Below are positions 2,367-54,888 of a DNA stretch of 60,026 nt, one piece after another. The stretch is from a phage. Location of the stretch: the sequence record PV806339.1; one strand, given 5' to 3'. The notes beneath the pieces were generated by a model. The model was not told the DNA's origin. It did not search any database and saw only the letters and a list, made by a program, of their open reading frames with translations. Position numbers and translations under genes: made by a program. Numbering within the stretch: the first letter of the stretch is position 1; each line of letters begins with the position of its first letter.

Positions 2367-4431
2367 GAGCATCGGGCAGATTATCAGTTCGGTGGCCGAG
2401 CAGTTACGGCCGCCAATGCGCATGACGGTGGCCGACGCGGCCGCCAAGTATCGCTACGTCAACCAACCCGGCGCATACGTCGGGGATTGGCTTAACTCGA
2501 CGACGCCGTACATGGTCGAGCCGATGAACATGATGAACAGCCGGGCGTACGACAAGATGGCCTTTGTCGGCCCGGCGCAGTCCGGTAAAACCGATGCGCT
2601 GATCCTGAATAGCATTGTCTATTCGGTGAAAGTTGACCCGATGGATCTGATGGTCTACTGCCCGACGTCAACGGCCGCGCGCGACTTCTCGATGCGACGT
2701 GTAGACCGTCTTCACCGCCATAGCCCGAAGGTGGGCGAAATGCTGATGAAGAACCGCGACGCCGACAACAAATTCGACAAACACTACGTCACAGGCATCA
2801 TCCTGACGTTGAGTTATCCGTCAGTAACCGAACTGGCCGGGCGTCCCGTTGGCCGCATCATCATCACCGACTACGACCGTATTGACGACGACATCGGTGG
2901 CGACGGTAACGCCTTCGACCTCGCATCAAAACGTACGACGACCTTCGGGTCGTTTGCCATGTGTGCAGCCGAGTCATCACCATCGCGCCCGATTAAAGAC
3001 CCAAGCTGGATTAAGCGCACGCCCCACGAAGCCCCGCCGTGTGACGGGATTGTCGGCCTGTACAACCGAGGCGACCGCCGCCGCTGGAAATGGCCGTGTC
3101 CGCATTGCGACCAGTATTTCGAAGGTACCTTCCAGCTTTTGAAGTGGAACACGAAAGACGCCGATGGCAACCCTCTAACCAACCTCGAAAAGTCGGAGAC
3201 AGTGCGCATGGCCTGTCCACACTGCGGCTGCGAAATAGACCCGGTTGATAAGTATGAAATGAACCTGTGGGGGATGTGGGTGCCGGAAGGCTGTCATGTC
3301 AACGAGTTGGGCCAACTGGCCGGGGTACCGATGCGCTCGTCGTTCGCGTCCTTCTGGCTTCGCGGAACGGCGGCCGCATTCATCACATGGCAGAAACTGG
3401 TTCTGAACTACCTCGATGCGATGGATGACTACGAGCGTACGATGTCCGAAGAGTCCTTGAAGAAATTCTGGAACAACGACATGGGCGAACCGTACGTGCC
3501 GAAGGCGATCGAGACGGTACGCGTTCCGGAAGCGCTGAAAGCCCGCGCCGAGAAGTGGCCGGAACAGACGGTGCCGAAGAATGTGCGGTTCTTGGCGGCC
3601 ACGGTGGACGTGCAGAAGCATAGCTTTGAAGTGTCGGTGCATGGCGTGGCCCCCGGCTACCCATTCGACACCTACCTGATCGACCGCTTCAACATCACGA
3701 AATCGCGCCGACTCGATGACGATGGCGACCCGAAAATCCTGCACCCGGGCGCGTACCTCGAAGATTGGGATCTCATTGAAACCGAAGTGATGAACAAGAC
3801 GTATCCGCTGTCCGATAATTCGGGCCGTTCGCTGCCGATCAAGATGACCGCGTGCGACTCCGGTGGTGAAGCCGGGGTAACGGGCAACGCGTACGAATTC
3901 TTCCGGAAACTGCGGAAGGAAGGGAAAACCGGGCGCTTCTGTCTGGTGAAGGGCGACCCGAAAGCGAACAACCCGCGCACCCGTGTAGCGCTACCGGACT
4001 CCAACCAGAAAGACAAGAAAGCCATCGCACGCGGCGACGTTCCGGTGCTGATGATTAACTCGAACGTGATGAAAGACAGCCTGAACGGCCGACTGGACGT
4101 CGTGGAGCCGGGCAAAGGCATGTACCACATCCCGGACTGGATGGGCGACGCGGTATTCGCCGAACTGTGTACGGAGACGCGTGACGAGAAAGGCTGGCAC
4201 AACCCATCCCACGCCCGAAACGAAACGTGGGACTTGGCATATTATTTATTGGGAATTTGCGTCAGTGGCCGCGTGCTCGGGATTGAGCAGATAGATTGGG
4301 ATAACCCGCCATCATGGGCGGCCGAGTGGGACGATAACAGCATGGTTATTTTACCGCAGAGCGATGAACCTATTGATGCACCGAAAGATACCGAATACAG
4401 TTTCGAGAAACTCGCAATGGCGTTAGCATAG
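2350..4431 (+). CDS. terL: terminase large subunit, lambda gpA-like
   Basis: 693 aa. Walker A VGPAQSGKT, paired CPHC motifs (CPHCDQYF, CPHCGCEI), and position between the TerS-like and W/portal-like genes. Confidence 0.9.
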   Translation: MTMKFKSIGQIISSVAEQLRPPMRMTVADAAAKYRYVNQPGAYVGDWLNSTTPYMVEPMNMMNSRAYDKMAFVGPAQSGKTDALILNSIVYSVKVDPMDLMVYCPTSTAARDFSMRRVDRLHRHSPKVGEMLMKNRDADNKFDKHYVTGIILTLSYPSVTELAGRPVGRIIITDYDRIDDDIGGDGNAFDLASKRTTTFGSFAMCAAESSPSRPIKDPSWIKRTPHEAPPCDGIVGLYNRGDRRRWKWPCPHCDQYFEGTFQLLKWNTKDADGNPLTNLEKSETVRMACPHCGCEIDPVDKYEMNLWGMWVPEGCHVNELGQLAGVPMRSSFASFWLRGTAAAFITWQKLVLNYLDAMDDYERTMSEESLKKFWNNDMGEPYVPKAIETVRVPEALKARAEKWPEQTVPKNVRFLAATVDVQKHSFEVSVHGVAPGYPFDTYLIDRFNITKSRRLDDDGDPKILHPGAYLEDWDLIETEVMNKTYPLSDNSGRSLPIKMTACDSGGEAGVTGNAYEFFRKLRKEGKTGRFCLVKGDPKANNPRTRVALPDSNQKDKKAIARGDVPVLMINSNVMKDSLNGRLDVVEPGKGMYHIPDWMGDAVFAELCTETRDEKGWHNPSHARNETWDLAYYLLGICVSGRVLGIEQIDWDNPPSWAAEWDDNSMVILPQSDEPIDAPKDTEYSFEKLAMALA

Positions 4432-4441
4432 GAGAACCACC

Positions 4442-4696
4442 ATGACACCCGAAGAATGCCGCGCGCAATATCGCCTCATGCTCAAAGAAGCGATGGATGC
4501 GTACCACCAATTAAACCTCGGCGGCTCGGTGCGCGTCGTGGTGGATCAGAACAGTGAACGCGTGGAATATACCGCAGCGAACCGACAAAGCCTATGGGCC
4601 TACATCGTTCGACTGCAAAACGCGATTAATTCGGACAACCCTTGCGCGGCCTTCATGGGCCTACCAAGTTCACCAGCAGGATTCTTATTCCCATGA
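4442..4696 (+). CDS. head-tail joining protein, lambda gpW-like
   Basis: 84 aa. The pattern ...GGSVRVVVDQNSERVEYTAANRQSLWAYIVRLQ parallels gpW (...[25 protein letters not shown]). Sits between terL and the portal gene. Confidence 0.65.
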   Translation: MTPEECRAQYRLMLKEAMDAYHQLNLGGSVRVVVDQNSERVEYTAANRQSLWAYIVRLQNAINSDNPCAAFMGLPSSPAGFLFP

Positions 4697-49398: not shown

Positions 49399-49623
49399 AT
49401 GTTTTACACCGTGCTTTTAAACGCCGACTTCGAAGGGGCGACAAACGTCAAAATCTTTTACGTGGAAGGGGAAACGGTAGAAGACGCCGTGACCGCCGCG
49501 ATCGATGACATCAACGCGACCGAAGCGGAGATCGGCGGGGATGACTTCGAACCGTTAGCGCGTGACCAGTTCACGATCATTGCAGTTTTTCCGGGCTATC
49601 AGCCTAACGTGTGGGAGGGTTAA
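49399..49623 (+). CDS. small, highly acidic protein
   Basis: 74 aa. Many Asp/Glu and very few basic residues. AGGGGA SD. Confidence 0.65.
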   Translation: MFYTVLLNADFEGATNVKIFYVEGETVEDAVTAAIDDINATEAEIGGDDFEPLARDQFTIIAVFPGYQPNVWEG

Positions 49624-49626
49624 CCG

Positions 49627-49896
49627 ATGGAAATTAACGGCGTACAGGTCAAAAGCGTTGAGCGGTTCAGCAATTACGCGGAATGGTTAGCGCGTCAAAT
49701 GGTGGCGGGCGTGCCGTTGGCGTCGCACGCTTGCCCGCATTGCGGATCGGCGTTGCACGTCATCGCAAACGGTGACAAGGGCGATCAATGGGATTCTACT
49801 TGCGCTTGTCCGGTGTGCGCGGGCTTCTTTCATCGCTCAATCATTCACGGCGAAAAGCCGGAAATAACGATCGTTAAACTGGATCGAGGTTGGTAA
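49627..49896 (+). CDS. zinc-ribbon protein
   Basis: 89 aa with CPHCGS...CACPVC, i.e. four Cys in a ribbon-like arrangement. Confidence 0.7.
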   Translation: MEINGVQVKSVERFSNYAEWLARQMVAGVPLASHACPHCGSALHVIANGDKGDQWDSTCACPVCAGFFHRSIIHGEKPEITIVKLDRGW

Positions 49897-49898
49897 TT

Positions 49899-50036
49899 AT
49901 GGCGGGCTTATGGTTTTTAGTGGTGACGATGTGCGGCGCGGTTGGCGCTGATAATATGGCGGCCGATTGTCACGATTATGTTATTGACGCGGGGATCTCT
50001 TATGACGATTGCCGCGCGGCCGTGGCGAGGCGGTAG
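49899..50036 (+). CDS. possible 45-aa protein with a hydrophobic N-terminus (not in the supplied ORF track)
   Basis: ATG at 49899 preceded by GAGG, TAG stop at 50034-50036. It fills the gap between flanking genes. Translation: MAGLWFLVVTMCGAVGADN... Confidence 0.4.
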   Translation: MAGLWFLVVTMCGAVGADNMAADCHDYVIDAGISYDDCRAAVARR

Positions 50037-50048
50037 AAGGGGGCAACG

Positions 50049-50300
50049 ATGAATAAAGGCCAATACCGCGCCGCGCGTCGCCTGATACGTGATAACGGGA
50101 TCTATGCGTTGCGATGGCTGGACGATGACACCGCGCCGATTATGGACGTGTTAGCAAGCCAGCCGGATGACCAGTTAGAGACAAGGGCGGCGATCGTGGC
50201 GTACAGCGCCCGCGCCGGGCTTGCGTGCAATGTGCGTAAAACGGCGTCACTTGACCTTTTAGCGCGGTACCATGACCGCAAGGCGGCCGCGAATGGATAA
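50049..50300 (+). CDS. hypothetical protein
   Basis: 83 aa. AAGGGGG SD. Confidence 0.7.
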   Translation: MNKGQYRAARRLIRDNGIYALRWLDDDTAPIMDVLASQPDDQLETRAAIVAYSARAGLACNVRKTASLDLLARYHDRKAAANG

Positions 50301-50544
50301 GGCGCAACGCTTAACGGCCGCACGTATGGCGGCGGATCGGTATGCCGGGATCGCAAGGGCAAAAGGTTTTAAGCGTCATATTGATGGCGTGACGTTTACC
50401 CGGGCCGATGCGGATCTAACGTGGGATGACCGGGCGCGCGCTTTCCGTGTGACGCTGTACAAAATGGACGGGGCCGCGCGTCTTGCCGTTGCCACTGTAC
50501 GCGCTAACGCGATGCTTAACGTGCTGTTAAAAGCGTTTATCTAA
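50293..50544 (+). CDS. hypothetical protein
   Basis: 83 aa from the ATG 50293, with an 8-nt overlap with the upstream gene (the ORF opens at 50272). Confidence 0.65.
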   Translation: MDKAQRLTAARMAADRYAGIARAKGFKRHIDGVTFTRADADLTWDDRARAFRVTLYKMDGAARLAVATVRANAMLNVLLKAFI

Positions 50545-50569
50545 AACCGAATTTTCGGGGAACGCCGCA
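50543..50569 (+). repeat. 27-nt repeat, copy B (non-coding remnant)
   Basis: aaaaccgaattttcggggaacgccgca lies immediately after the last gene of cassette 2. There is no start codon, and a 1-nt indel lies just upstream of the repeat relative to copy A. Confidence 0.9.
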
Positions 50570-50610
50570 CGATCCCTTTTAACCTGTTTTGACATATTCC
50601 CCATGTATCA

Positions 50611-50640
50611 AAGGCCGCCTATCCGGGCGGCTTTTTTATT
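50611..50640 (+). terminator. rho-independent terminator ending rightward cassette 2
   Basis: GCCGCC-tatccg-GGCGGC followed by TTTTTTATT. Confidence 0.9.
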
Positions 50641-50647
50641 GCCTTTC

Positions 50648-50846
50648 TGATATACGCGGCGTGCGTTGGTGTGCCGTGTATCGGGCCTATGGTGCGCCGC
50701 TGTAGTTGATATACGCGGCGTGCGTATGGCGGCCCGTCCTGCTTTCTTCCTTCCTGATATACACGACGTGCATCAATGCGGCCTTATGTGCGCGCTATGC
50801 CGTATGGCGGCCCGCTATGGTGCTGCATGATATACGCGGCGTGCGT
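50648..50846 (+). repeat. four promoterless copies of the early-promoter spacer box
   Basis: TGATATACGCGGCGTGCGT at 50648-50666, 50707-50725 and 50828-50846, plus the variant TGATATACACGACGTGCAT at 50755-50773. No usable -10/-35 pair accompanies them. Confidence 0.9.
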
Positions 50847-51083
50847 TGGTGTGCGGCTGTATATGGCTATCTATTCCCCTTTCTATGGTATCCCCTGCTA
50901 TATGGTGTGACGGGGCGTTATTGTATGCCCTTATTTCGGCCGCTATGGGGGCTAGGCGGGGCGATCGTGGTGTAAGGTATGCCTACCTATTACGATCTAT
51001 CTTGCGAGGCGTGGCGGGCGGCTGAGAAAGAATTACGGTCACGATTTCAAAAAGGTACTTACCCGCCAGTCGGTCGGCCCGGG

Positions 51084-51095
51084 GGTGCGCAGAGC
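51084..51095 (+). other. candidate cohesive-end (cosN) dodecamer GGTGCGCAGAGC
   Basis: A GC-rich dodecamer containing the TGCGCA palindrome, in the largest non-coding region. It matches my unverified recollection of the 12-nt 5' cohesive end of chi-like phages. Confidence 0.3.
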
Positions 51096-51307
51096 CGCTT
51101 TCTCGGAAAATGGGCCGGATCTGCCATAGCCCCGCTTTGCGAAATCAATAACTTAGCCGAAAAACCGAATTTCTCCCGTAGGGAGTCTCCAAATCGCGGT
51201 GGTGACGGGGGTGCGGGCGGAACGGCGCTTTAGCCCCGCAATCGGTTGATTGTATTACTGTTTTACCCGGTGGGCGGGTGCTGACCAAGTCCACGGCAGC
51301 AGTATCA

Positions 51308-51587
51308 GGTTACAAGTTACAGACGGGTTACAAGTTTTTCGCTTTGTAACCTCTAACTATCTCACTGTTTTTACTGCGTTTTTCTCCTATAAAGTTACAA
51401 GTTACAAATAAAGTATAGTAATAGTCCAGAAATAGAGAAAACGAGGTAAAAATGTGAATTTTATATAGGGGGGAATTTTACCCGGGCGCTAAACCACTTC
51501 GGTTTGTAACCTGAATACCCGGATCGCTGAGAGCCGCGCCACCACTGGCCCGAACATGGTTACAAACGGCGAAAATGGTATGTAACC
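51308..51587 (+). repeat. array of GGTTACA(A/T) half-sites in direct and inverted arrangement
   Basis: ggttacaagttacag 51308-51322; GGTTACAAG-n7-CTTTGTAACC 51326-51351; gttacaagttacaaa 51394-51408; ggtttgtaacc 51501-51511; GGTTACAAAC-n9-GGTATGTAACC 51558-51587. Confidence 0.85.
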
Positions 51588-51620
51588 TTTTGCCCGTTTT
51601 GGCCGTTTTCTTGCGTTTCA

Positions 51621-51636
51621 ATAACAAATTTGTTAT
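51621..51636 (+). promoter_or_regulatory. perfect 16-bp palindrome ATAACAAATTTGTTAT (operator candidate)
   Basis: Lies just upstream of the putative promoter of the XRE gene. A further half-site TTTGTTAT lies at 51667-51674, just after the -10 element. Confidence 0.6.
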
Positions 51637-51654
51637 ACGTCTTGCCCCGAATCC

Positions 51655-51663
51655 TGCTATAAT
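51655..51663 (+). promoter_or_regulatory. extended -10 promoter TGcTATAAT for the XRE-family gene
   Basis: TGCTATAAT lies 34 nt upstream of the ATG at 51697. The -35 element is poor. Confidence 0.45.
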
Positions 51664-51696
51664 TTATTTGTTATAAACAGCAAAAATAGGTCAAAA

Positions 51697-51984
51697 ATGC
51701 AGCACGATGAATGCCGTGAAACGTTGATGGATTTCAAACGACAATTACAGACACATTTGAAGGCGATTTTACGTCGTCAGGGGGTCACACAGAGCGCGCT
51801 TGCGACGATGATCGGCGTACACCAGTCAAGATTAAGTTTCATGCTTAACAGTGACGCAGACAGAGTTTCGATCGATAAACTCATTGAAGCGATAGTGAAA
51901 CTGGACGGCGTGTTTATGGTGAAAATCGGAGATCAAACAGACATAAATCGAGTGCGGTACAAGGAGTGCGAAGACAACGTTTGA
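51697..51984 (+). CDS. XRE-family HTH DNA-binding protein
   Basis: 95 aa. HTH segment VTQSALATMIGVHQSRLSFMLN. Confidence 0.75.
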   Translation: MQHDECRETLMDFKRQLQTHLKAILRRQGVTQSALATMIGVHQSRLSFMLNSDADRVSIDKLIEAIVKLDGVFMVKIGDQTDINRVRYKECEDNV

Positions 51985-51990
51985 CAGACA

Positions 51991-52021
51991 AAAATAAGGC
52001 CGGATTTCCCGGCCTTTTTAT
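51991..52021. terminator. bidirectional terminator between convergent genes
   Basis: AAGGCCGG-atttc-CCGGCCTT, flanked by an A-run upstream and a T-run downstream. Confidence 0.85.
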
Positions 52022-52024
52022 CGA

Positions 52025-54610
52025 CTAAACTTCGTCTTCATCGTCAAACGGGTCTGGCTTTTTGCCGACCAGTTTTTCGACTTCTGCGTCATGCCGTTTT
52101 AACGTAGTCTGCACCCACGACGAGTTAAGTTTCCCCGCGTCGTCGAATGCCCCTTTGACCCGCTTCCTGACATAAACGCGGCCAGATTCGCCGCCAAATT
52201 TGACCACGCCGCCCGGCTTGAAGCCCAATTCCATAAGCATGTTTTTCAGGCGGTTCGTCTTCGGCATTTCCACGTCTGTCATTTCGAGGAATGCGTTTTT
52301 CAGGGACGGCACGAAGATGACGTCGCGGTGTACGCCCGGCGTCGTTCCGTCACGAAGCATTTGTGCGATTGCGCCTTCCACGCCATCGTCAGACGCGTCG
52401 GCCATGACCGCGAATGCTTCGGTGTCCTGCGGTGCGTGTCCTTTGGCATCGAAATCCTTTCCGATCTCCCAATCGAGGAACCACTTTTTGATAGCAGGTG
52501 CGTGGTTTTCGATTGCCCGGTACACGTTTTTGAAGAAGCGCGCGCGTTCAGTCTTCGACCCGTAAACCCGCTCCATGTCCAGATGATTTTCTGCCTGCGT
52601 GGACACCACCAGATAACGACGCTGGTTTTCATCGAGTGGCAATGCGTTGAAGTGGTTGGTGAACATCATTTTGCTGCTGGTGTTCACGACTTCCTTCGGC
52701 TTGCGGCCCTTTGGCTCAATCTGGAAGCGATCGTTTGTGATGAATTCCTTCTGGCGTTCCACCGCGCTGTACCGATCGCCTTTGTCGTAGATCTCTTCCA
52801 CGATTTTCAGGATGTGGCCCTCGGCCCAATCGCTGAAACGGCCATTCATCACGGTGTTTGACACATAGCCCACGTTCGACGCGCCGAGCATCCGCGACAT
52901 GATGATGCCGAGCGTCGTTTTACCAGAACCATGCGCACCACGGATCAGAAGCGAGTAGTTGATGCGTTTCGTTGGGTGCTGAATAACCCACGCCATCCAG
53001 TCCAGAACATAGCGGCGTTCCTTCTCGTTCGGGAAAAGCACGATGAAGAAGTCTTTGATGATCTCCAGCGCCTTTTTGTCGTACGGAGAAAGGTCAGTCG
53101 CGGCCTCCGGAATGGATTCAGGGTCAAAAGAGTTCAGCCACGTACGCCCACGGTCGTCAATAAAGAATTCCGGCCCGATCACCCCCTCTTTCGGCTTCCA
53201 CACAGATTCCGGCATGTCACCGTGCATCGCCGGGTAGTACATCGCGTCCCAAACGATAGGAACCGGGCGGACTACCGACGCATAGTGGACAGGCTTGAAG
53301 GCTTCTTCCTCAAACACGCATTTTTTCGCAAAAGCGACGTCGAAAGCGCCTTTTGTGATGTAATCGCCCGTGGTTTTTTCGATAAAACTGTCATTTGCCT
53401 TCGAGAAAACGAAGTTTTTCAGCCACTGCGGAGTCTCTTTTGACCCGTAATCGAAGCCCAAAAGCTCCCTTTTGTCACCAGCAGTGAGGCGGAAGTTGTT
53501 GATCCTGCGGTATGCTTCGGCCGCAATCTGGACGATGGCCTTGCGGGTAAGCCCGAAAATCTGCGCTTTTTTGAATGATTCGGCCCACGCATTCCAGTCA
53601 TTCGCCTCGGTACACTCGGCGAAAGCCTCGCGGTACTCGATGGCGCGTTCTTCCTGCTCGGCTTTCTCGATGTCCTGCACTTCTTTGATGATGGTGCCGA
53701 GCGTGATCAGTCGAGTCGAGTTGTGCGCGAAGCCCTTATCCCACTTGTATTCGAAATCACCTTCGTCGAAGTTGTGTGCCTGCATGGCCCATTCGCGGGC
53801 AATGGCCTTCGCCTCGTCCTGATCGCGGCAGGAAATTTGCAGCGCGGCCAGTACGGTGATGTAGTTCTCGTAATCTTCCGGGTTCGGGTATTTCAGGACG
53901 ATGTCGCGCAGTTCATCGTACGTGCCGTCCCACTTTTTGACGTCAGACAGCGCGGCCCAATCGTCATCGTCTGCCGAACCGATAGACTCATAACCGTTCA
54001 TTGGCCGTTTGACCATTGTCCAGCCCAAGTCCTTCGCGTATCGGTCGAATTCGGCGGCGATCTCGCGAGCGGTATCGAGGCTGATCTCTTCGAGGTCAAG
54101 GTCGGCGGCGTTGTTCAGCGGATTCTCGCCATCAATCCAGTAATAGTCGCGCTTGGTGTCCGGGTGGATACCGTACGCAACGAACTGCTGGCCGTCGGCG
54201 AGGATTTCAACTGCATGGCGCTGGCCGAAGTCGTCTTCCCACACGCCGGATTTCACTTTGGCGAACGGGTTTTCGGTTCGGTACAGGTAGAGTTTCTTCG
54301 GCTCCCGGCCGATACGACATGGCGCTGCACCGACGTTCTCGGCGATCCAGTCTGCCATGTGCGCCACGGCGTCTTCATCGTAAACGTCGATGTCAACCGC
54401 CGGGGTGTATTTGGTCAGAATCCCGATGCCGTTATTCGTATAGCGTTTCGCCCAACGCTGGATCTGCTCCTTATCATTGATTGTTCGTTCCCAATCTTCA
54501 CCGATAGGGCGTTTGCCCGCACCCTTCTTATCGGCGTCCGGGGCGTAGATAGGTACGATGGTGTACCCATTCCCCCAAAGCGTTTCGCCGTACTCTTGCC
54601 AGTAGTTCAT
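52025..54610 (-). CDS. bifunctional primase-polymerase / P-loop helicase (prim-pol plus P4/D5-type NTPase)
   Basis: 861 aa. N-terminal prim-pol-like region (GYTIVPIY...GKRPIGEDW), Walker A GAHGSGKTTLG, Walker B-like ILKIVEE. Ends FDDEDEV. Confidence 0.85.
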   Translation of the reverse strand: MNYWQEYGETLWGNGYTIVPIYAPDADKKGAGKRPIGEDWERTINDKEQIQRWAKRYTNNGIGILTKYTPAVDIDVYDEDAVAHMADWIAENVGAAPCRIGREPKKLYLYRTENPFAKVKSGVWEDDFGQRHAVEILADGQQFVAYGIHPDTKRDYYWIDGENPLNNAADLDLEEISLDTAREIAAEFDRYAKDLGWTMVKRPMNGYESIGSADDDDWAALSDVKKWDGTYDELRDIVLKYPNPEDYENYITVLAALQISCRDQDEAKAIAREWAMQAHNFDEGDFEYKWDKGFAHNSTRLITLGTIIKEVQDIEKAEQEERAIEYREAFAECTEANDWNAWAESFKKAQIFGLTRKAIVQIAAEAYRRINNFRLTAGDKRELLGFDYGSKETPQWLKNFVFSKANDSFIEKTTGDYITKGAFDVAFAKKCVFEEEAFKPVHYASVVRPVPIVWDAMYYPAMHGDMPESVWKPKEGVIGPEFFIDDRGRTWLNSFDPESIPEAATDLSPYDKKALEIIKDFFIVLFPNEKERRYVLDWMAWVIQHPTKRINYSLLIRGAHGSGKTTLGIIMSRMLGASNVGYVSNTVMNGRFSDWAEGHILKIVEEIYDKGDRYSAVERQKEFITNDRFQIEPKGRKPKEVVNTSSKMMFTNHFNALPLDENQRRYLVVSTQAENHLDMERVYGSKTERARFFKNVYRAIENHAPAIKKWFLDWEIGKDFDAKGHAPQDTEAFAVMADASDDGVEGAIAQMLRDGTTPGVHRDVIFVPSLKNAFLEMTDVEMPKTNRLKNMLMELGFKPGGVVKFGGESGRVYVRKRVKGAFDDAGKLNSSWVQTTLKRHDAEVEKLVGKKPDPFDDEDEV

Positions 54611-54888
54611 TCAAGGATTTCCCCTGTTTCGCTGTCCGTTTTGATCCATGAAGGGTTAGTCAGCCAATGCGGACGGATGCCGCAGTGAGGGACAGCTTTG
54701 CAAACTTTTTCGGCCACGCTGCTCGTTACGTTGTTCTGCACGGCCCATAACAATGTCGGGTAACTGATCTTCGCTGCCTTCGCCAGTTCGGCCATTCTGG
54801 CGTTCGGGTCTACCTCCAAAGCCGCTTGCATCATGAGAAATTTGACCCGCATCCGGTCGTCGTTTAAAGCCCAATCTGGAAATCGCAT
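54607..54888 (-). CDS. Cro/YdaS-like HTH protein
   Basis: 93 aa. HTH-like MAELAKAAKISYPTLLWAVQN. GAGGG SD. ATGA-coupled to the primase gene. Confidence 0.65.
   Translation of the reverse strand: MRFPDWALNDDRMRVKFLMMQAALEVDPNARMAELAKAAKISYPTLLWAVQNNVTSSVAEKVCKAVPHCGIRPHWLTNPSWIKTDSETGEILE

Follow-up and report, generated by a model that had tools for sequence, protein, structure and literature searches.

A repeat array beside the left genome end

The phage sequence PV806339.1, analysed over its whole length of 60,026 nucleotides (hereafter the window), is 94–98% identical in the region described here to Salmonella and Escherichia chi-like phages (Chivirus, Casjensviridae), the group of the classic flagellum-dependent phage chi. 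This region contains the left end of the virion DNA and, close to it, a cluster of GTTACA repeats at 51308–51587, the subject of this report. The cohesive end of chi and of phage Utah has been determined experimentally (PMC4342425, PMC5374247), and base 1 of the Utah record aligns to window position 51084, which places cosN, with its 12-nt 5′ cohesive end GGTGCGCAGAGC, at 51084–51095 on the plus strand. A candidate cos site suggested in an earlier note on this DNA, made from the letters alone, is thus real, since the published end is found there. Rightwards of cos follow a 600-bp non-coding stretch that holds the repeats, a gene for a helix-turn-helix (HTH) protein, a terminator-like hairpin, a primase-helicase gene, and a gene for a protein of 93 amino acids. 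The terminase genes lie more than 10 kb from cos (PMC4342425), with the TerS gene at 1797–2366.

GTTACA occurs 19 times in the whole window, and nine of these copies fall within 51309–51586, six on the plus strand (cores at 51309, 51316, 51327, 51394, 51401, and 51559) and three on the minus strand (51345, 51505, and 51581). Six of the nine sites read GGTTACA and three AGTTACA, giving the consensus RGTTACAA. The dense half-site array described in the earlier note is therefore borne out, with nine GTTACA in ~280 bp, and so are its two inverted pairs (51326–51351 and 51558–51587) and its two tandem direct pairs (51308–51321 and 51393–51406); every sequence quoted in that note was found in its place. 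The ten copies outside the array occur singly at scattered places, and 19 in all is about the number expected by chance. Against the nine copies observed, 20,000 dinucleotide-preserving local shuffles gave a mean of 0.30 GTTACA in 300 nt and a maximum of 4, and any hexamer at all reached nine copies in only 0.13% of shuffles. In the array, 213–503 bp right of cosN, hexamer clustering is denser than anywhere else in the window.

The left cluster (51308–51351) consists of the tandem sites S1 and S2 (plus strand, 51309 and 51316), followed by S3 (plus, 51327) and S4 (minus, 51345), which form the inverted pair GGTTACAAG-n7-CTTTGTAACC. An AT-rich core at 51352–51500, with 29–36% GC in the composition profile, is a candidate DNA-unwinding element and includes the tandem sites S5 and S6 (AGTTACAAGTTACAA, 51393–51407, plus strand), which are invariant in all five aligned phages. 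S7 (TTTGTAACC, 51503–51511) lies on the minus strand, where it reads GGTTACAAA, and the array closes with the right pair S8 (plus, 51559) and S9 (minus, 51581), arranged as GGTTACAAAC-n9-GGTATGTAACC at 51558–51587. The lowest-GC 120-nt segments of the entire 60-kb sequence (29–33% GC) start at 51301–51391 and are flanked by array sites. A search for DnaA boxes (TTATNCACA, up to one mismatch) gave no match in 51300–51600 and one single-mismatch match at 51671, and the whole-window count of TTATNCACA is at chance level; with no DnaA boxes in the array, initiation here would not depend on host DnaA.

Comparison across related genomes, a check proposed in the earlier note, showed that the layout of the array is kept at the same place while the repeat word varies. 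YSD1, the Klebsiella phage Seifer, and the Providencia phage Stilesk carry GTTACA sites at cos+210 to +540 whose order and orientation match those of the window, with the positions of S1–S4 kept and the spacers diverged. In a five-phage alignment, 46 of the 63 iteron columns are invariant compared with 54 of the 235 spacer columns (Fisher p = 5e-13). The layout shared by the relatives comprises a tandem pair, an inverted pair, a tandem pair, an AT-rich stretch, and further sites. Depending on the phage, the word is GTTACA, GTAACA, ATTACA, or GTAAGAAG, and distant relatives have unrelated words. In full, TATTACAAG occurs in KPN N137, L100, L104, and L106, GGTAACAA in PibeRecoleta, PatoteraRojo, L016, L018, L101, L103, and ZCSE8, GTAACAGT in L015, and GTAAGAAG in Redjac. 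The distance from the array to the primase stop codon is ~440 bp in the window and ~100–145 bp in PibeRecoleta, N137 (L019), and L106. Among distant relatives of the primase in IMG/VR, 23 of 61 show some heptamer particular to the lineage at least five times in the 600 nt that follow the primase stop, compared with 14 of 482 control segments passing the same criterion, which makes such repeat clusters a general feature of the wider family.

In YSD1 and Seifer (L003 and L004), the first tandem pair, at cos+225 to +240, reads GATACAAGATACAA instead of GTTACAAGTTACA, with GTTACA at the other sites. Some sites therefore tolerate a change of base 2.

The repeat word and the primase C-terminal domain

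The primase-helicase gene (52025–54610, minus strand) encodes 861 amino acids, in which a Pfam scan places Prim-Pol at residues 13–168, PriCT_2 at 243–309, and DUF5906, described as an SF3/D5-like helicase, at 557–665, followed by a C-terminal domain. An AlphaFold2 model of this last domain (residues 730–861, 52028–52423 on the minus strand), built from a 41-sequence alignment, has a pLDDT of 80 and a pTM of 0.73. Its topology, H1-b1-H2-H3-b2-b3-H4, resembles a winged helix followed by a C-terminal helix, and we propose this winged-helix-like domain as the origin binder. Fold searches with the model returned sub-threshold matches only, several of them to winged-helix DNA-binding domains. Helix H3 and strands beta2 and beta3 correspond to residues 785–815 (nt 52166–52258). 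As a search of a 5.8-billion-protein set with the C-terminal domain alone returned 2 fragments only, the full-length primase was used as the query for that set.

Protein identities were compared in two within-genus pairs whose words differ, Seifer/N137 and Stilesk/Redjac. TerS (99% and 98% identical, respectively), TerL (99% and 97%), the DNA polymerase (98% and 95%), the helicase (97% and 98%), the portal (98% and 94%), and the major capsid protein (99% and 97%) are nearly the same within each pair. The primase is 61% identical in Seifer/N137 and 54% in Stilesk/Redjac, and the 93-residue protein 52% and 98%. At the DNA level, the sequence from cos−600 to ~cos+150 is 72–98% identical in both pairs and identity collapses from ~cos+200, where the array starts; in Stilesk/Redjac the primase start codon marks the exact point at which it is back at 96%.

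Two closer pairs delimit the exchanged segment. Stilesk (GTTACA) and PibeRecoleta (GTAACA), both isolated on Providencia rettgeri B0142, are 90–100% identical in DNA from cos+1 to +250, divergent from +251, the first iteron, to nt 1300, and 98–100% identical beyond; their primases are identical over residues 1–751, with all differences after 751. N137 (ATTACA) and L018 (GTAACA) diverge from a left boundary at ~cos+175, and their primases are 96–100% identical by segment over residues 1–720 and 59% identical over 721–861. The exchanged cassette, as these boundaries define it, therefore consists of the array, the content of the HTH slot, and the primase C-terminal domain. These genome comparisons show that replacement of the repeat word goes along with replacement of the primase C-terminal domain, with neither TerS nor the 93-residue regulator changing in step.

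The idea that the primase cassette is the sole difference within the pairs was rejected after whole-genome comparison, other mosaic patches being present. Stilesk and PibeRecoleta have further divergent patches at ~36.9–38.3 kb, 42.7 kb, 47.7–48.5 kb, and 54.1–55.0 kb and at the right end.

Within the C-terminal domain, strand beta2 varies with the word. It reads G-V-x-K in the six sequences with GTTACA, G-L-x-K in the eight with GTAACA, and G-V-x-C in the six with ATTACA, so that strand and word covary without exception in the 20 sequences of these three classes (22 sequences in all). Residue 802 tracks iteron base 3 and residue 804 tracks base 1. Between YSD1/Seifer and L106, the helix-wing core differs only by K804C and V814I, and iteron base 1 changes from G to A.

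Neighbouring elements: the cos flank and the HTH cassette

Between cosN and the array lies a conserved cos-proximal block (51127–51239, plus strand). It is bounded by two direct copies of TAGCCCCGC at 51127–51135 and 51231–51239, 104 bp apart and the only exact copies in the window, which flank AATCAATAACTTA at 51143–51155, a sequence resembling the consensus of integration host factor (IHF). The block is kept in chi, YSD1, Seifer, Stilesk, Redjac, and N137, and partly in the Proteus phage DanisaurMW, and it is 75–98% identical in phage pairs with differing arrays. It lies nearer to cosN and is a better candidate for cosB than the GTTACA array.

On the other side of cosN, at the right genome end, TGATATACGCGGCGTGCG is present in four direct copies starting at 50648, 50707, 50755, and 50828 (together 50648–50854), 230–440 bp left of cosN. 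Counterparts are found at the same place in ZCSE8 (four copies of TGGTATACGCGGCGTGCG) and in Redjac (ACATACGCCGCGTATGT-like copies). These copies look like extended −10 elements or protein-binding sites, and could be packaging or promoter elements, since the flank is kept in pairs with 98–99% identical TerS. Further left, in a region of small genes at 49800–50300, CCGCGC is in local excess, with six to seven copies per 300 nt, and forms the second densest hexamer cluster in the window. A scan of 49500–52500 for known RNA families gave nothing near any gathering score.

The HTH gene (51697–51984, plus strand) encodes a small XRE-type protein of 95 amino acids with Pfam HTH_37 and HTH_3 domains, as part of a variable cassette. 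Upstream of it, the earlier note had pointed out a perfect palindrome, an extended −10 element, and a further half-site, and all are present: the palindrome ATAACAAATTTGTTAT, a candidate operator of the HTH protein, at 51621–51636, and, on the plus strand at 51655–51674, the extended −10 element TGCTATAAT (51655–51663) followed by a third half-site TTTGTTAT (51667–51674). No other perfect palindrome of 16 nt occurs in the window; with ~1.3 expected by chance genome-wide, ATAACAAATTTGTTAT is weak evidence taken alone. Its significance comes only from its location, as 1.6% of shuffles of the 600-nt intergenic region yield a perfect 16-nt palindrome. A strict scan for paired −35 and −10 hexamers found no promoter upstream of the HTH gene, and the promoter is therefore called from the extended −10 element alone.

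The palindrome, TGCTATAAT, and the half-site are invariant in three distinct chi-type sequences (chi and Utah included), among which the 18-nt spacer between the palindrome and TGCTATAAT varies at five positions. The chi-type HTH cassette occurs only at ≥97% identity, in 34 phage records. A more distant comparison is provided by ZCSE8, which has GTAACAG iterons and an HTH protein 32% identical to that of the window: it carries ATAAC-TCATAG-GTTAT at −75 from the start codon, compared with ATAAC-AAATTT-GTTAT at −76 in the window, as well as a further GTTAT downstream. Other HTH types have other inverted repeats. In this one comparison, the palindrome therefore follows the HTH gene and not the iteron type, supporting the idea of autoregulation raised in the earlier note. 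The palindrome and half-site are a separate element, plausibly an operator through which the XRE-type protein would repress its own predicted extended −10 promoter.

The three half-sites of the palindrome type read ATAACAA, which is the iteron word with A at the class-variable positions 1 and 3. That ZCSE8 shares only ATAAC argues that the HTH protein, and not the primase, reads the palindrome.

In the space from the array to the primase 3′ end, some phages have differing small HTH genes (82, 95, 97, 102, and 108–110 amino acids) and others have open reading frames (ORFs) of 189–204 amino acids or nothing (surveyed in L003, L004, L009, L016, L018, L021, L099, and L103). This HTH slot behaves like a variable cassette inserted beside the putative origin. 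Scanning IMG/VR for exact copies of the sequence around the HTH start codon gave hits that were mostly due to chance. Between the convergent HTH and primase genes, a terminator-like hairpin (AAGGCCGGGAAATCCGGCCTT, 51996–52016, called on the minus strand) has nine pairs, six of them G-C, and T-runs on both sides, which suggest that it could work bidirectionally. In relatives, the 3′ end of the primase gene likewise has a GC-rich hairpin of similar kind.

The gene for the 93-residue protein (54607–54888, minus strand) lies upstream of the primase gene and overlaps its start codon. Its product has no Pfam match and is annotated as a transcriptional regulator in some records. This protein has diverged along with the N-terminal part of the primase in Seifer/N137, but not in Stilesk/Redjac.

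The array as a probable replication origin

The GTTACA array (51308–51587) and its AT-rich core are, in our judgement, probably an iteron replication origin that is read by the C-terminal domain of the primase (residues ~730–861). An origin-like element was among the functions considered in the earlier note, and the swap pairs, the covariation, and the AT-rich core support it. We infer that the C-terminal domain would bind the array, that the DNA would melt there, and that replication would start at this place. In the proposed mechanism, C-terminal domains bound on both sides of the 29–36% GC stretch would bring the helicase domains together, the helicase would assemble on the melted DNA, the N-terminal primase would make the first primers, and the phage DNA polymerase I would then take over.

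Several observations weigh against this interpretation. For no chi-like phage did the searchable literature yield evidence from biochemistry or from replication mapping, and GC skew gives no origin signal here, since it tracks gene orientation and is uninformative. The C-terminal domain has no match to any Pfam family or to the sequence of any PDB chain, and comparison with the origin-binding domain of P4 alpha (PDB 1KA8) gave an hhalign probability of 0.13%, that is, no similarity. The V/L and K/C rule in its simple form does not hold for L015 and Redjac, which have other beta2 sequences and other words. As the 22 covarying sequences are related among themselves, they represent few independent events, with about three near-isogenic contrasts. 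The compared pairs also differ elsewhere: Stilesk/PibeRecoleta have five to six further short patches, and identity to N137 reaches 90% or above over only 64% of the Seifer genome. The coding region of the C-terminal domain adjoins the array, so that one recombination patch would carry both without any functional coupling.

Such linkage is central to a reading in which another phage DNA-binding protein, encoded in another mosaic patch, or a host factor recognizes the array, and the primase is connected to it only physically. The additional patches in Stilesk/PibeRecoleta and the 36% of the genome over which Seifer and N137 differ leave room for such a protein. We nevertheless consider this improbable, because the divergence stops within the primase gene in both near-isogenic pairs, close to where the C-terminal domain begins, and because the predicted DNA-contacting wing residues follow the iteron bases in 20 of 20 sequences of three classes; a host factor is unlikely since three phages from the same Providencia rettgeri strain use two different words. 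It is also unlikely that the C-terminal domain binds the array while initiation takes place elsewhere, the array serving as a replication enhancer or copy-control element comparable to P4 crr, or as a site of primase autoregulation or handcuffing. The covariation evidence all concerns binding and not the start of synthesis, and the repeats that immediately follow the P4 alpha gene are those of crr, with ori 4.5 kb away. The window, however, contains no second cluster of the word, and the array encloses the most AT-rich segment of the genome, resembling an unwinding site.

The functions that involve packaging, gene regulation, or partition have fared worse. Its position near an experimentally defined cosN, on the side of the distant terminase genes, together with short repeats and AT-rich, bendable DNA that resemble lambda cosB, could mark the array as cosB-like sites, at which TerS or a packaging-accessory protein would position the terminase at cosN in the manner of the lambda R sites. 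This option of the earlier note is contradicted by the near-identity of TerS (98–99%) across phages with different words and by the conserved 150–250 bp next to cos, as the DNA from cos−600 to between ~cos+150 and +250 is 75–100% identical and change starts at the array. Moreover, the arrays of the window and Stilesk are 74–84% identical, whereas their cos-proximal DNA at +50 to +130 is only 28–50% identical, and the TAGCCCCGC pair with its IHF-like site offers a better candidate nearer to cosN; packaging sites in the array are thus very improbable. We think it equally remote that a small regulator of the phage, be it the neighbouring XRE-type HTH protein or the 93-residue protein, uses the repeats as operators, even though short repeats, inverted and in tandem, close to a promoter are what operators typically look like and the two genes are no more than 3.5 kb away. 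The HTH gene is missing from at least nine sequences that have an array (N137, L019, L020, PibeRecoleta, PatoteraRojo, L015, L100, L101, L104, and L106), and GTTACA co-occurs with three HTH types (chi, YSD1/Seifer, and Stilesk) that are at most 27% identical over local alignments. The 93-residue protein is nearly unchanged (98%) in Stilesk/Redjac despite their different words, and its gene is 100% identical in DNA between Stilesk and PibeRecoleta over the stretch compared. A second regulator's operators, also proposed in the earlier note, are therefore contradicted for both proteins. Clustered short repeats in mixed orientation can also be parS-like, but a centromere-like partition site is extremely improbable: partition proteins are missing from the annotated records of close relatives, the ORF list showed no partition gene in the neighbourhood of the array (the window had no dedicated ParA/ParB scan), chi and Utah are described as lytic (PMC4342425, PMC5374247), and the link to the primase domain would be left unexplained.

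As an origin, the array has its functionally closest known counterpart, by analogy, in the alpha system of the satellite phage P4. P4 alpha combines a primase, an SF3 helicase, and a C-terminal winged helix that binds octamer origin repeats (PMC2777425, PMC4234260), and the chi-like protein likewise unites a primase, an SF3 helicase, and a C-terminal, presumably DNA-binding domain that is winged-helix-like by model. In both systems, repeats of 7–8 bp, in P4 the type-1 repeats of ori and crr, occur as tandem pairs and inverted copies. P4 crr, at 4291–4590, directly follows the terminator of the alpha gene (stop codon at 4636), and this placement of a repeat set just downstream of the initiator gene recurs in chi-like phages without the HTH cassette. 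The P4 primase is described as being of the bacterial (Toprim) type (PMC4234260), whereas the chi-like protein has an archaeo-eukaryotic Prim-Pol with PriCT_2; P4 requires two loci, ori and crr, compared with one cluster here; the P4 repeat word is TGTTCACC compared with RGTTACAA; and the C-terminal domains have no detectable sequence similarity. As membership fails on domain homology and on the two loci, the chi-like system may be said to work like that of P4 without being a member of it.

The archaeal plasmid system pRN1 orf56/orf904 has the same domain order (Prim-Pol, SF3 helicase, C-terminal winged helix), an essential cis element directly downstream of the replicase gene, and a small regulator gene co-transcribed just upstream (PMC2777425, PMC4234260). 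The window resembles it in predicted domain order and in a putative cis element downstream, and its pair of 93-residue and primase genes recalls the orf56/orf904 repressor-replicase operon. The pRN1 origin differs in being a stem-loop of ~100 nt without recognisable iterons, for which sequence-specific binding could not be shown, in contrast to the iterons and AT-rich DNA found here. In phage-inducible chromosomal islands (PICIs), two iteron sets flank an AT-rich region (PMC6092414). The array shares with this pri-rep-ori arrangement, seen in PICIs and the Staphylococcus aureus pathogenicity islands (SaPIs), iteron sets around an AT-rich putative melting region beside primase or replicase genes. 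PICIs have island-specific iterons matched to a divergent part of the Rep protein. They differ, however, in being satellite islands with separate pri and rep genes, whereas here a fused primase-helicase and an array 0.2 kb from cos belong to a 60-kb lytic siphovirus.

Among the lambdoid phages, the DNA-binding domain of O is swapped along with its iterons, the two forming a single specificity cassette, and the chi-like array and initiator domain likewise appear to be swapped as a unit. The lambdoid iterons lie inside the O gene and host DnaB is recruited via P, whereas the array lies outside the gene of an initiator that has its own helicase and primase. Lambda cosB, with its R sites and the IHF site I1, is similar in adjoining cosN and in its AT-rich, bendable DNA; the array differs in that its changes are unrelated to TerS and its replacement leaves the cos-proximal DNA aside.

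On this reading, the array is an expected element of a known kind, previously unannotated in this phage group, and involves no new principle. Nothing is annotated in the array stretch, and no replication origin, in the GenBank records of chi-like phages (Casjensviridae) that we examined, and the searchable literature describes no origin or iterons in these phages. A bolder idea, tentative and on balance doubtful, is that chi-like phages carry mutually exclusive pairs of origin and initiator, in which residue 802 (V/L) would read base 3 (T/A) and residue 804 (K/C) base 1 (G/A), and that the cassette is swapped between near-identical phages of the same host, which would keep co-infecting relatives from firing or titrating one another's origins. 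If true, this would constitute a compact, natural, and re-programmable code of protein-DNA recognition for a self-contained primase-helicase initiator.

With a probable origin and a likely initiator domain located, replication in the chi-like group becomes directly testable. The assignment would account for the mosaic hotspot that recurs at the left end of the genome and would separate the origin from the actual packaging signals that flank cos. The natural swaps, which are unusually clean, provide ready specificity variants (GTTACA, GTAACA, and ATTACA) differing by very few amino acids, which would be useful for studies of recognition by initiators of the Prim-Pol/SF3 helicase type and for orthogonal replicons.

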